The notes beneath the pieces are model-generated. The model was not told where the DNA came from and searched no databases. It was given only the letters and a program-made list of their open reading frames with translations. Source: a virus (taxonomy: Duplodnaviria > Heunggongvirae > Uroviricota > Caudoviricetes). Taken from it: DNA of 64,000 nucleotides. Of the stretch, positions 53,768 to 55,448 are shown piece by piece (positions within the stretch are counted from its first letter, which is position 1; each line of letters opens with the position of its first letter). The stretch lies in the IMG/VR virus record IMGVR_UViG_2721755711_000002. The stretch is one strand, 5' to 3'. The position numbers and the translations under genes are program-made.

Positions 53768-53792
53768 TAAAAAAACCGCCGAAGCGGTTTTA
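53768..53792 (-). terminator. bidirectional rho-independent terminator after cargo gene
   Basis: ACCGCC GAAG CGGT hairpin flanked by A-run and T-run. Confidence 0.55.
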
Positions 53793-53799
53793 AGTTAAC

Positions 53800-54546
53800 T
53801 TATTTTGCCTGTTTCATTTTTTCCACCCTCTCAAGCATTCTTTTTACATTTGATGGAGGATAGTTAAATTCATCGCCGTCTCCAAAAGAAATTTTTATAG
53901 GCTTCATTTTCATAACCAATTCTTTCAGAACCGCTTTACCAATTTCAGTTTTTGGTACTATAAAACCATTTCCATACAAGCATGATTTATAAGTTTTATA
54001 ATATTCACCATTAATCAAAATTGGTGGATACTCTAATGGCCCATCAATTTGCACTGAATTATCGCAAAATCCATTGCCTTTAGATTTTGAAGCAATAAAA
54101 ATAGCTATTGTCCCATCATCGCCATACATCAGGAATCTATTTTTACTAACACCTTCCAGTGGAGGTAATATTATCAGTGCACCATCAATATACCATTCAG
54201 CGTAATTCTTTGATTCATTGATTATGTTCTCATTAATTTCATTTAAAGATGAATATTCCCTGAATGCATTAGAATACCATTGTCGAACACATGATTCTGT
54301 TTTGCACTTCTCTCTTTCATTCCACAAGTCTGAAACAATTTTTCTAAAAGCTTTCTTATCAGCGCTCTCTAACTTTACTTTTTGATATAAAGAATTTAAT
54401 TTATCATCAAGTTCAGATAATTCACTGTTGCTGCAAATTAACTTTTCAGAATATGATTTAGCTTTCGAGCAATCAAAAGATACCGCATTCGCAGTTCCGA
54501 TTTGTAATAAAAAAGCAAACACTACAAATAATTTAAACTTAATCAT
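53800..54546 (-). CDS. secreted protein with LprI/DUF1311-like N-terminal domain (cargo gene)
   Basis: 248 aa; signal peptide MIKFKLFVVFAFLLQIGTANA; FDCSKA...EKLICSN..L..LD..LN..Y motif typical of DUF1311; gene is conspicuously AT-rich relative to flanking tail genes. Confidence 0.5.
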   Translation of the reverse strand: MIKFKLFVVFAFLLQIGTANAVSFDCSKAKSYSEKLICSNSELSELDDKLNSLYQKVKLESADKKAFRKIVSDLWNEREKCKTESCVRQWYSNAFREYSSLNEINENIINESKNYAEWYIDGALIILPPLEGVSKNRFLMYGDDGTIAIFIASKSKGNGFCDNSVQIDGPLEYPPILINGEYYKTYKSCLYGNGFIVPKTEIGKAVLKELVMKMKPIKISFGDGDEFNYPPSNVKRMLERVEKMKQAK

Positions 54547-54878
54547 CCGTAATCTCCTTAAAAACAGGAGATTAAATTTTACCCATTCTTAATGTCCGTT
54601 CAAGTTCATACTTTACAACCGCGCCCAGTTGAGTATGATTAAGCGCATGAGGCGTCGAAACCTCTTCTCAGTGCGGTCACAACCAACCCCGTTAGTGTTG
54701 GATTTTTTATGCCTGCTATTTAGTGATGGCACAATGTGCGGTCACATCCCCGAACAATGTCGGGAGGGCGACGAATACAACACCCGAAAGGGGAATAAGT
54801 CCGCGGCCTCACTGAGCCGTTTCGAACCTCCCGGCTCCACTCCGATAGTGGAAATTCGAAAAAATCAGTGAGGTCGTT
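54547..54878. promoter_or_regulatory. divergent promoter region between cargo gene and antirepressor gene; candidate small regulatory RNA or leader
   Basis: Direct repeats GTGCGGTCACA (54671 and 54736) and ACAATGT; hairpin CCAAC...GTTGG with T6 tract (about 54682..54708); SD GTGAGG before ATG 54879. Confidence 0.35.
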
Positions 54879-55448
54879 ATGACAATACAATTAATCCCCG
54901 TTTTCAACGGAACTATCTCAAACGAAACCGCCCTACTCTGTAATGCTCGTGATCTGCACGCTTTTCTTGGTGTAGGTAAGGTTTTCGCAGCCTGGATTAC
55001 ATCCCGCATCGCAGAATACGGATTTACAGAAAATCAAGATTACATTTTGCTTTCCAAAACAGGAAAGCAATCGTTAGGAGGCAGAGGAGGACATAACCGC
55101 AAGGACTACCACCTCACCCTAGACACCGCCAAAGAACTGGCAATGGTCGAGCGCAACGAAAAAGGACGCCAGATCCGCCGATACTTCATCGAGTGCGAGA
55201 AGAAGCTGCGCGAAGATACCACCAGCACACAATCCCCTCTGAATGTTGACATCATCATGCGCGTCAGAAACGGCTCGGTTACCCACATTGAGCACCACAA
55301 ATCAGGCTCAGTTATCACCACAGAATGGGCAATTCACTTACTACGCAAAAGTGGATGGATTGTCATGCCACGCGATGAACTTCTTAACACGCCACTGGCC
55401 CAATTGATGCCCGAAAACTTGCCTCAAACCGGAACCTGCGTCCGGTAA
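54879..55448 (+). CDS. phage antirepressor-like protein (Ant/KilAC-type)
   Basis: 189 aa; N-terminal ...ARDLHAFLGVGKVFAAWITSRIAEYGFTENQDYIL... resembles antirepressor N-terminal domains. Confidence 0.55.
   Translation: MTIQLIPVFNGTISNETALLCNARDLHAFLGVGKVFAAWITSRIAEYGFTENQDYILLSKTGKQSLGGRGGHNRKDYHLTLDTAKELAMVERNEKGRQIRRYFIECEKKLREDTTSTQSPLNVDIIMRVRNGSVTHIEHHKSGSVITTEWAIHLLRKSGWIVMPRDELLNTPLAQLMPENLPQTGTCVR

Follow-up and report, generated by a model that had tools for sequence, protein, structure and literature searches.

What does an AT-rich gene for a secreted protein do between the baseplate genes of a tailed phage, and does the antirepressor gene divergent from it belong to the same acquisition? 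Both questions arise from a locus in the 64,000-nt window analysed here, which is the whole stretch taken from IMG/VR virus record IMGVR_UViG_2721755711_000002. The first-pass annotation placed the two genes in a single AT-rich insert and read the secreted product as a lysozyme-inhibitor-like protein with a possible role in superinfection exclusion or envelope protection. The host element is best explained as an E. coli prophage that is lambdoid, Rac-SA53-like, and Q-antiterminated; besides the gene for the secreted protein (hereafter the cargo gene), its annotated genes include one for a Q antiterminator.

Cargo Cassette: Boundaries and Exchange

The cargo gene (53800..54546, minus strand; WP_061322967.1) is a 248-aa ORF with a GC content of 0.312, compared with 0.481 in the 3-kb flanks, and has a strong AAGGAG Shine-Dalgarno sequence 7 nt ahead of its ATG. 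It is a real gene that is kept by purifying selection: in comparison with the cq9 allele, the pN/pS of the ORF is 0.14, and residues 115-248 show nine synonymous and no non-synonymous changes.

Comparison with nine related prophages, a check of the kind suggested in the first-pass annotation, gave sharp boundaries. The left conserved flank of the slot is the baseplate J/gp47 gene (52531..53757, minus strand), at the ATG of which the homology of all relatives ends (53757/53758); in relatives without the cargo gene, homology restarts at 54560-54648. Because the antirepressor gene, ant, and the intergenic region have a backbone-like GC content (0.486 and 0.479, respectively) and the homology of relatives restarts at 54560-54648, the insert spans approximately 53759-54610 and does not include ant. 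The AT-rich insert originally described thus holds the cargo gene and not its divergent neighbour: membership of ant in the insert was ruled out by composition and by homology to relatives, and ant and its leader are phage backbone. The right conserved flank of the ant module is a baseplate-module gene matching phrog_7986 (55424..55771, minus strand), with which the 3' end of the convergent ant overlaps by 25 nt.

As proposed, the cargo gene is variable and not part of the core: it was found in 12 of the 89 E. coli genomes that have the same baseplate J backbone, and the other backbone genomes sampled carry different AT-rich cargo in the same slot, mostly encoding signal-peptide proteins. The seven alternative slot genes in the relatives examined have GC contents of 0.32-0.37, against 0.45-0.49 in the flanks, and five of the seven encode an N-terminal signal peptide. 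A profile of the C-terminal domain of the cargo protein (see below) detected none of the other slot cargo (rac61, rac62, and proteins of 164 aa and 180 aa), which are therefore unrelated to this domain at the sequence level. A structural role in the baseplate was considered for the cargo protein and ruled out by the signal peptide, the presence in only 12/89 genomes, and the GC content of 31%.

The cargo gene has its own intrinsic terminator, confirming the earlier description. This element (53768..53791, minus strand) consists of stem AAAACCGC, loop UUCG, and stem GCGGUUUU, followed by a U-run, with the baseplate J start codon (53757) 10 nt further downstream; the centroid hairpin of the RNA fold has an energy of -10.3 kcal/mol (z -2.0). 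The terminator is kept in ETEC1703, in which the C-terminal half of the cargo differs and homology extends to 53791. A sigma-70 promoter is predicted for the cargo gene at 54576..54603 (minus strand; TTGAAC-16-TAAAAT), with a 9/12 match to the consensus in a region where a consensus scan found promoter-like sites to be no more numerous than in shuffles; this candidate is common only to relatives with minus-strand cargo (L004 and L008). The cassette comprises one gene, a candidate promoter, and a terminator.

Presence or absence among colinear relatives with a sharp boundary, and the deviant base composition of the cargo gene, are both features by which morons are recognised, and the cassette is best explained as a moron, a self-contained unit that occupies an exchange hotspot within the late baseplate operon. 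Lambdoid morons, reportedly treated by Hendrix and Juhala in 2000 and by Cumby in 2012, include bor and lom of lambda, which lie in late operons; in HK97, gp15 is an exclusion protein encoded within the tail gene cluster. Like the lambdoid morons, the cargo gene is an extra gene between genes that are adjacent in relatives, has a deviant composition, has its own terminator and a candidate promoter, and sits in a Q-antiterminated late operon; an envelope-located product that benefits the lysogen would be expected here too. The likeness does not extend to the proteins: the cargo product belongs to protein families unrelated to those of lambda Bor and Lom or HK97 gp15, and is predicted to be soluble and periplasmic rather than located in the inner or outer membrane. 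During lytic growth, Q-modified polymerase would pass the cassette terminator and continue into baseplate J.

Cargo Protein: Domain Architecture

The N-terminus of the cargo protein is signal-peptide-like (residues 1-21; MIKFKLFVVFAFLLQIGTANA, followed by VS), in agreement with the secreted protein originally described. Behind it come a divergent DUF1311/LprI-like head with four cysteines, predicted to be helical (residues 22 to ~103), and a beta-rich domain with two invariant cysteines that belongs to an uncharacterised phage family (residues ~115-248). The two parts are modular. In a protein-level comparison, the signal peptide plus head (encoded by 54238..54546, minus strand) shows 66% identity with its counterpart in the ETEC1703 cargo protein of 356 aa, and the segment coding for the C-terminal domain (53803..54204, minus strand) is swapped between C5-type and ETEC1703-type genes; the same head is joined to at least four unrelated tails.

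The LprI-like assignment of the N-terminus holds in a qualified form. The cargo protein scores 18.2 bits against PF07007, below the gathering cut-off of 22, and the alignment is confined to residues 26-66 and to the first 47 of the 106 profile positions; for the ETEC1703 paralogue, the score is 10.8 bits. Kinship with PF07007 is instead indicated by relatives of the head that pass the threshold (P0002, 26.1 bits; P0003, 23.1 bits; RB49p262, 26 bits), by the four-cysteine pattern, and by the N-terminal FDCxKA...E..IC motif. P0002 was matched at 39% identity (E 2e-9 in a 5.8-billion-sequence database), and an alignment of head relatives (A5) has invariant S-F-D-C, K, E, I-C, W, R, and Y. Single-sequence AlphaFold2 (AF2) predicted helices across residues 32-98 at low pLDDT (47-74; 41 for the whole protein), and sequence and profile searches of the PDB with the head gave nothing significant. 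In common with the PF07007 proteins LprI of M. tuberculosis, ScwA of Salmonella, and Etsi4 of EHEC, the cargo protein has a signal peptide, the FDC-KA-x4-E-x2-IC pattern, four cysteines, and a helical prediction; the family, like the cargo protein by prediction, is periplasmic, and its literature has links to peptidoglycan-cutting enzymes. The differences are that the cargo protein falls below the PF07007 threshold, lacks an MliC domain, is no lipoprotein, and carries a phage-specific beta domain behind its head, and that its gene lies in a prophage tail operon.

The C-terminal domain gave a confident AF2 model (pLDDT 89.5, pTM 0.82). Exhaustive phmmer searches returned 19 matches, about 14 of which are standalone signal-peptide proteins of 153-165 aa; the match to P0004 has an E-value of 1.2e-25, and 13 further standalone proteins were matched over their full length. 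The invariant columns of the family are W, C, C, and P. Five of the standalone homologues (P0004, P0019, P0023, P0024, and P0009) match phrog_22446, a phage family of unknown function, over their full length with E-values from 1e-11 to 2e-20, whereas the cargo domain itself stays above E 1e-3 against this profile. These similarities, including the invariant Trp, two Cys, and Pro shared with the standalone homologues, place the C-terminal domain in a small family that is uncharacterised and has kinship with phrog_22446. The arrangement differs, in that the cargo domain sits behind a DUF1311-like head whereas the phrog_22446-type standalone domain lies directly behind the signal peptide. The domain searches originally advocated for the C-terminal half thus led to a small phage family and not to a lysozyme-inhibitor fold.

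Apart from E. coli prophages that are nearly identical, searches for related loci with single proteins recovered just two distant loci, and none of 50,697 phage genomes searched by tblastn matched the standalone homologues P0019 and P0023. In Pfam, NCBIfam, PHROGs, and PADLOC, the cargo protein shows no similarity to any described exclusion or defence protein; its PHROG matches are all of “unknown function,” its sole NCBIfam match (A1S_1983) is far below threshold (24.5 bits against a cut-off of 150), and PADLOC gave no match for any of the slot cargo examined. Our literature searches brought up no work on LprI-family proteins encoded by prophages or on the cargo of Rac-SA53.

Lysozyme Inhibition and the Tape-Measure Protein

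Direct inhibition of a host or phage lysozyme, in the manner of MliC, PliC, or Ivy, is a most improbable function for the cargo protein. The name assigned to WP_061322967.1 by PGAP, “lysozyme inhibitor LprI family protein,” is in its favour, as are the weak PF07007 match and the relatives of the head that exceed the Pfam threshold. However, neither a profile nor a fold of MliC, PliC, Ivy, PliG, or PliI was found in the cargo protein. Moreover, PF07007 is itself without experimental evidence as an inhibitor, the inhibition by M. tuberculosis LprI rests on its MliC domain, and ScwA, an LprI-domain protein of Salmonella, has no role in lysozyme resistance (PMC7933661). The lysozyme-inhibitor reading in the first-pass annotation is therefore weak, having been drawn from the family name. 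More generally, PGAP spreads the misleading name “Lysozyme inhibitor LprI family” onto proteins that have no inhibitory MliC domain, an annotation that the present analysis corrects.

The lytic transglycosylase domain that had been placed next to the cargo gene exists at a greater distance: a tape-measure-like protein of 657 aa (58674..60647, minus strand) has an SLT domain (residues 481-578; E 1e-20), and its gene lies ~4 kb and five genes away. The SLT domain also occurs in relatives with other cargo, and for some phages with standalone homologues of the C-terminal domain no SLT domain is recorded in the region shown. A specific link between the cargo gene and the tape-measure SLT domain is thus not supported.

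These observations bear on a role in the lytic cycle of the phage itself, in which the cargo protein, in the periplasm, would hold the endolysin or the tape-measure SLT domain in check, or would affect the timing of lysis. The SLT domain in the 657-aa tail protein is compatible with such a role, and late Q-antiterminated transcription would include the cargo gene, since it is on the same strand as the baseplate genes and within the late operon. Nevertheless, most relatives with the same SLT protein do not have the cargo gene (present in 12/89), homologues elsewhere are on the opposite strand to tail genes or in a repressor operon, and tail proteins assemble in the cytoplasm, apart from a periplasmic protein; we consider this role very improbable.

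Genomic Context and Inferred Function of the Cargo Protein

Homologues of both domains occur at a limited set of positions in phages. A homologue of the head is encoded 5 bp past a CI/Xre repressor in Bordetella phage vB_BaM-IFTN9, and in phages of Yersinia and Klebsiella others have baseplate genes on one side and tail-fibre genes on the other. The head is not confined to lysogeny, since virulent T4-like phages have it too. Homologues of the C-terminal domain directly follow, in the same orientation, an S24 CI-type repressor in two prophages, and one of these two operons also has a PF14373 Imm_superinfect gene. Within tail or baseplate modules, homologues on the opposite strand occur in a Mu-like prophage of Burkholderia and in a myophage resembling Pam3/E217. 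One Rac-SA53-like relative has a homologue in the same slot, and at one further locus the homologue, again on the opposite strand, stands between the early genes and the lysis genes. All informative contexts found here for the two domains are phage or prophage, with no T6SS or toxin genes nearby.

We tentatively interpret the cargo protein as an envelope protector that is made by the lysogen and placed in the periplasm, most likely acting through superinfection exclusion. The Sec signal peptide would direct export to the periplasm, where the product would be a soluble, disulfide-bonded, two-domain protein, the second domain of which also exists in other phages as a standalone, putatively periplasmic protein. 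Synthesised in the lysogen, it would protect the cell envelope by binding a component that an incoming phage needs in the periplasm (for instance, an ejection protein or a peptidoglycan-cleaving domain at the tail tip), and would thereby block genome entry. The positions of the homologues of both domains in other phages fit, by analogy, such a protective or exclusion role, and those in CI-repressor operons provide indirect support for expression of the cargo gene in the lysogen. Published links between the family of the head and peptidoglycan-cleaving enzymes also favour this reading: ScwA increases the levels of MltD (PMC7933661), and reports or predictions of immunity to T6SS effectors directed at the cell wall exist for DUF1311 proteins (PMC12981562, PMC12135965, PMC9796082).

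Among known exclusion proteins, Sp of phage T4 is a periplasm-facing inhibitor of the tail lysozyme gp5; others include T4 Imm, P22 SieA, and Cor/Llp, and P22 sieA, like the cargo gene, adjoins an ant immunity region inside the late genes. These provide a working analogy, in that a phage-encoded envelope protein would halt a later phage as it crosses the wall or membrane. The likeness would be mechanistic only, as the cargo protein has no sequence or fold similarity to T4 Sp, Imm, SieA, or Cor/Llp. An improbable alternative is that the cargo protein is a lysogenic-conversion factor acting toward an animal host or at the cell surface (adhesion, invasion, or serum resistance), like lambda Bor or Lom or Bartonella IalB.

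Alternatively, the cargo protein could be an orphan immunity protein that protects the lysogen against peptidoglycan-degrading toxins of competitors (lysozyme-like or amidase T6SS effectors, or bacteriocins), so that the lysogen would be fitter in warfare. Periplasmic DUF1311/LprI proteins have been reported or predicted to confer immunity to T6SS effectors that target the cell wall (PMC12981562, for Etsi4; PMC12135965; PMC9796082). The cargo protein is likewise predicted to be periplasmic, and its combination of a head with a variable tail that is swapped in situ resembles polymorphic immunity repertoires. However, the informative contexts of both domains are all phage or prophage and T6SS and toxin genes are absent nearby, the standalone family of the C-terminal domain matches a PHROG family, and the head has only a sub-threshold LprI match. 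We therefore regard this alternative as unlikely, and retain superinfection exclusion as the tentative function.

It is possible, although doubtful, that the head and the phrog_22446-like domain are swappable modules of an unrecognised polymorphic class of periplasmic exclusion or immunity proteins of phages. Such proteins would occupy two lysogen-expressed positions (repressor operons and, as morons, tail operons) and would be shuffled in situ, each tail recognising a different periplasm-acting component of a rival phage or toxin. If the cargo protein does have a protective role, the hotspot in ~90 sequenced E. coli prophages would amount to a catalogue of several unrelated, mostly secreted, uncharacterised proteins, and the proteins of this slot could be screened in parallel for exclusion of phages or immunity to toxins.

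Antirepressor Gene and Putative Antisense RNA Module

The divergent gene ant (54879..55448, plus strand) encodes an antirepressor of the AntA/AntB family, as first proposed: residues 22-93 match PF08346 with 90.5 bits against a cut-off of 27, and its PHROG matches (phrog_14211, phrog_5817, and phrog_377) are all anti-repressor families. The promoter predicted for the ant leader (54612..54639, plus strand; TTTACA-16-TATGAT, 10/12) has the same hexamers upstream in relatives, and stands back to back with the candidate cargo promoter.

Between this promoter and ant lies a structured small RNA that matches the Rfam family sRNA-Xcc1 (RF02221; 54759..54843, plus strand) with 72.4 bits against a gathering threshold of 53 (E 1e-12). 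The element precedes ant by 36 nt and is co-oriented with it; in other loci it stands before AntA, Bro-N, and Rha antirepressor genes, and in a Bordetella phage the equivalent position is occupied by a true C4 RNA (RF01695). The ant leader contains two target boxes (54855..54873, plus strand): TTCGAAA, which is complementary to sRNA positions 61-67, and TCAGTGAGG, which overlaps the Shine-Dalgarno sequence and is complementary to the hairpin 2 loop (CCUCACUGA). The loop CCUCACUGA and the box UCAGUGAGG are predicted pairing partners, and the perfect complementarity of loop and leader extends over 9 nt and ends 5 nt ahead of the ant ATG. A second, upstream copy of the two boxes (GTCGAAACC ... 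TCAGTGCGG) is present at 54654..54676 (plus strand), and is separated from the small RNA by a terminator-like hairpin (54683..54708, plus strand; CCAAC/GTTGG, then T6) that is kept in six of seven loci.

Across seven loci there are six different loop sequences, each of which matches its own leader, and the upstream box complementary to the loop changes together with it in all seven of the loci examined. Duplex energies averaged -10.2 kcal/mol for cognate pairs, compared with -3.9 kcal/mol for non-cognate pairs, the cognate pairing being the best in 7/7 rows and 6/7 columns. The best upstream box lies 91-93 nt ahead of the RNA (61 nt in L016) in six of the seven loci; in the remaining locus, L038, the best duplex involves a further copy of the box, 109 nt ahead, and inspection by eye shows one at ~90 nt.

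Given this covariation, the sRNA-Xcc1 element appears to be an antisense RNA of the c4/CA type that controls translation of ant, in a backbone module separate from the cassette, in which the small RNA just upstream would pair with the ant ribosome-binding site as in P1 (c4) and N15 (CA RNA). P1/P7 c4 RNA with icd-ant and N15 CA RNA with antA are both anti-immunity (immI) modules (cited in PMC3632133 as refs 111 and 112). As in these phages, a structured RNA lies just upstream of the antirepressor gene on the same strand, with loops complementary to boxes at the ribosome-binding site, a duplicate of these boxes lies farther upstream, and loops and boxes co-change between phages; the upstream boxes at 54654..54676 have their analogues in the a1/b1 sites of immI in P1. 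Unlike those of P1/P7 and N15, the present RNA belongs to sRNA-Xcc1 (RF02221) and not to C4 (RF01695), and the module lies inside a baseplate operon; no icd-like leader ORF, as in P1/P7, was seen ahead of ant. Published discussion of sRNA-Xcc1 has centred on virulence regulation in Xanthomonas and Xylella. The pairing predicted here would give this RNA family a concrete, testable function, as an antisense regulator of antirepressor translation in phages.

Beyond the 3' end of ant, a weak match to sar RNA was also recorded at 55920-55986 (24.4 bits against 43).

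Cargo Gene and Its Insertion Slot

The ORF at 53800..54546(-) encodes a 248-aa protein with a predicted N-terminal signal peptide, as the first-pass annotation had described; the peptide is of typical Sec type and ends A-N-A. Its GC content is low (0.312, vs 0.481 in the 3-kb flanks), and it has its own terminator at 53768-53791(-), a hairpin (AAAACCGC-UUCG-GCGGUUUU) followed by U's, 10 nt before the start codon of the baseplate J gene (52531..53757, -). Seventeen codons differ from the 97%-identical cq9 allele, 11 of them synonymously (pN/pS 0.14), and residues 115-248 show nine synonymous changes and no non-synonymous ones; judged by this low pN/pS and the mostly synonymous differences, the ORF is a real gene.

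The boundaries of the insert come from pairwise alignments with nine relatives. Homology on the left always stops at 53757/53758, the baseplate J ATG, and restarts on the right at 54560 (E. coli STEC383), 54610 (three strains), or 54648 (Escherichia phage Rac-SA53). The antirepressor gene ant (54879..55448, +), its leader, and promoter region show 89-92% identity in the relatives compared, with GC of 0.48-0.49. From these breakpoints and the conserved, normal-GC ant module, the alignments place the cassette at about 53759-54610, with a single gene inside. The low-GC insert proposed from the sequence alone is thus real, although it had been drawn too wide: by conservation and composition, ant belongs to the backbone.

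Among 5,426 complete E. coli genomes, 89 have the baseplate J backbone; 12 of these 89 carry the cargo gene, in this slot every time, and with its deviant composition the gene is not a conserved core gene. Other occupants of the slot are rac62 and rac61 (Rac-SA53), proteins of 164 aa and 228 aa (STEC383), a 180-aa protein (ETEC4085 and JNEC-KY178, with an apparently frameshifted version in TUM9757), and a 356-aa protein (ETEC1703). All seven alternative slot genes compared are AT-rich (0.32-0.37 GC), and five encode an N-terminal signal peptide. The slot is therefore a moron hotspot of the textbook kind, and the cargo gene is a moron within it, beside a backbone immI-type antirepressor module. 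During lytic growth, transcription would probably cross the cassette terminator because the late operon is Q-antiterminated. Involvement in lysis or tail function of the phage itself would suit a gene lying among baseplate genes and five genes from an SLT-domain tail protein (657 aa; 58674..60647, -), and is very improbable for one carried by so few of the backbones.

Two more variable sites, both small, lie close to the slot (window 55449-55924; 3479-4469 and 3822-4376 in the compared loci L007 and L009, respectively). The site between ant and a phrog_7986 gene holds a YafO toxin and partner in strain TUM9812 and a metagenomic locus (L016), and the site at 55772-55924 contains a Rha-family gene (ETEC1706) or extra DNA (STEC383, ETEC1703, and ETEC4085).

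Host Prophage

The region matches the bovine E. coli strain C5 (NZ_CP010122.1) without a difference; there, the cargo gene bears the tag RG28_RS18840 (WP_061322967.1). This lambdoid prophage has an annotated Q antiterminator, holins, M15 endolysin, and terminase, and its tail module is similar to that of Rac-SA53 (94% identity outside the cargo). The tail region is present twice in C5, once near 3.11 Mb and once near 3.57 Mb, the latter being the window copy, reversed; the copies are 99.99% identical across 13.8 kb. At 48591-49856, a 211-aa (+) and a 221-aa (-) "prophage tail fiber N-terminal domain" gene, both truncated and sharing about 85% DNA identity, meet head-to-head at 49191-49226, connecting a P2-like tail module with the Rac-SA53-like one; the other C5 copy of the latter has an intact 474-aa fiber gene. 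The truncated genes, together with the near-identical duplication, suggest either inter-prophage recombination at the fiber gene or an assembly issue. A phage deposited as "Actinobacillus phage vB_Apl-pPE4" (PP818812.1) shows 96.7% identity to the tail region of the E. coli prophage; a Pasteurellaceae host is unexpected, and this host assignment may need checking.

Modular Structure of the Cargo Protein

The N-terminal head had been described as LprI-like. Pfam LprI (PF07007) matches only residues 26-66, at 18.2 bits (cut-off 22), and an NCBIfam search of the protein gave nothing meaningful; the head is, however, homologous to above-threshold LprI proteins (P0002, P0003, and RB49p262), with which it has in common an FDC-KA...E..IC motif and four cysteines. 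We therefore treat it as a putative divergent DUF1311 branch. The slot protein of ETEC1703 is 66% identical over residues 1-101, followed by an unrelated 255-residue tail; in the DNA, only the tail codons differ, whereas the head codons (54263-54546) and the terminator up to 53791 are conserved. The head alone (residues 17-101) was detected by tblastn in 102 phage genomes, joined to other tails: Yersinia and Klebsiella myophages have a domain of roughly 100 residues there, a Bordetella phage has a tRNA_anti-like OB fold, and RB49-like T4-type phages have yet another tail. On these alignments, the head is a shuffled module.

In RB49 (RB49p262; L026 2453-3211) and some 95 further genomes of virulent T4-type phages (JSE and Aeromonas/Klebsiella relatives), the DUF1311/LprI head belongs to a secreted protein of ~250 aa and is above the Pfam threshold; the gene is placed in an early region of hypothetical genes.

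To trace the C-terminal domain, residues 100-248 were compared by exhaustive phmmer with 1.84 billion representatives, giving 19 matches; about 14 of these are standalone proteins (153-165 aa) made up of a signal peptide and this domain. One Trp, two Cys, and one Pro are invariant among them; these standalone proteins have no Pfam family, and five match phrog_22446 (function unknown). AF2, with a 20-sequence alignment, confidently predicts a beta-sandwich with two helices (pLDDT 89.5, pTM 0.82). Matches in BFVD comprise four unnamed phage proteins of similar size (TM 0.59-0.65, query-length normalized).

True lysozyme inhibition, suggested initially by the LprI resemblance, is the least probable function considered. 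No known lysozyme-inhibitor fold is among the matches listed for the C-terminal domain in the domain and fold searches, and membership of the head family does not imply that function: no experiment supports PF07007 as inhibiting lysozyme, inhibition by M. tuberculosis LprI needs no more than an MliC domain distinct from it, and ScwA, a periplasmic LprI-domain protein of Salmonella, leaves lysozyme sensitivity unaffected and raises MltD levels (PMC7933661). DUF1311 proteins are also reported or predicted to confer immunity to T6SS effectors that target the cell wall (PMC12981562, PMC12135965, PMC9796082). Together with ScwA, this makes a link between the domain and peptidoglycan-cutting enzymes plausible, if unspecific. 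Immunity to competitors' peptidoglycan-targeting toxins would draw on the same literature, and is an unlikely but credible alternative for a protein whose relatives are phage-borne in all informative contexts.

Genomic Contexts and Probable Function

Genomic context is the main functional clue. Informative contexts of the standalone C-terminal domain are all phage or prophage, in accessory positions. In a Paraburkholderia fungorum prophage and a metagenomic prophage (L021), the gene lies directly 3' of, and co-oriented with, an S24 CI-type repressor gene; the latter operon also holds a PF14373 Imm_superinfect (T4 Imm-like) gene (5404-5607). Elsewhere it is on the opposite strand between DNA-circulation and hub genes (Burkholderia gladioli Mu-like prophage), in a cargo island of the baseplate module (Pam3/E217-like myophage, also opposite strand), in the same slot adjoining a Bro-N antirepressor and YafO toxin (Rac-SA53-like relative), between early and lysis genes and again on the opposite strand (one locus), or adjoining a Rha gene (one locus). 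The head family has the same two placement habits, repressor operon and tail module: it lies 5 bp 3' of a CI/Xre repressor gene in Bordetella phage vB_BaM-IFTN9, and between baseplate and tail-fiber genes in Yersinia vB_YenM_21.09 and Klebsiella Chronis. Lysogens typically express genes of repressor operons and opposite-strand morons, as established for lambda rex, P22 sieA, and HK97 gp15.

The cargo gene encodes an uncharacterized, modular protein that is probably periplasmic. Tentatively, we infer a soluble envelope protector expressed in the lysogen, with superinfection exclusion as the likeliest mechanism, in which the protein would bind a periplasm-acting component of an incoming phage. 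PADLOC, Pfam, and NCBIfam gave no functional match to known exclusion or defense proteins, and the families matched in PHROG have no assigned function. A host-directed conversion factor is an improbable alternative.

In the immunity region of the Bordetella phage, Rfam matches a Burkholderiales-2 cis-regulatory RNA just 3' of the gene with the DUF1311 head (L025 4856-4929, -; 94 bits).

Antirepressor Gene and Leader RNA

The divergent gene at 54879..55448(+) is, as first annotated, an antirepressor, clearly of the AntA family (90.5 bits). An Rfam sRNA-Xcc1 element (RF02221; 72.4 bits vs 53) lies at 54759-54843(+), 36 nt 5' of ant, and other loci have the element about 38 nt 5' of their antirepressor genes (AntA, Bro-N, or Rha); in the Bordetella phage, the equivalent position is occupied by a bona fide C4 antisense RNA. 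The loop of the second hairpin (CCUCACUGA) is a perfect complement of UCAGUGAGG at 54865-54873, overlapping the ant Shine-Dalgarno. Seven loci have six different loop sequences, each matching its own leader: cognate loop-box duplexes average -10.2 kcal/mol vs -3.9 for non-cognate ones, and the cognate pair is best in 7/7 rows and 6/7 columns. A second box (UUUCGAA vs UUCGAAA) covaries with its partner between loci, as does an extra copy of both boxes about 90 nt 5' of the RNA. The leader (54612-54878, +) reads candidate promoter, upstream target boxes, terminator-like hairpin, sRNA-Xcc1 element, and target boxes over the Shine-Dalgarno, the same architecture as the P1/P7 c4 and N15 CA-RNA anti-immunity systems (cited in PMC3632133). 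This layout, and the loop/box covariation in seven loci and three antirepressor families, suggest that sRNA-Xcc1 in phages is a c4-like antisense regulator. The family has been discussed in terms of virulence regulation (PMC12189769), and in APSE phages it was noted 5' of an ORF6N gene and left uninterpreted (PMC7313666).

The 3' ends of ant and a convergent baseplate-module gene (55424..55771, -) overlap by 25 nt (55424-55448), so that late transcription would run antisense through the whole of ant. Directly 3' of the baseplate gene at 56019..56732, a strong terminator-like hairpin (55950-55983, -; 14 pairs, 8 G-C, then a T-run) forms a second terminator within the late operon; on the other strand, 55920-55986 gives a sub-threshold Rfam match to sar RNA (24.4 bits vs 43).
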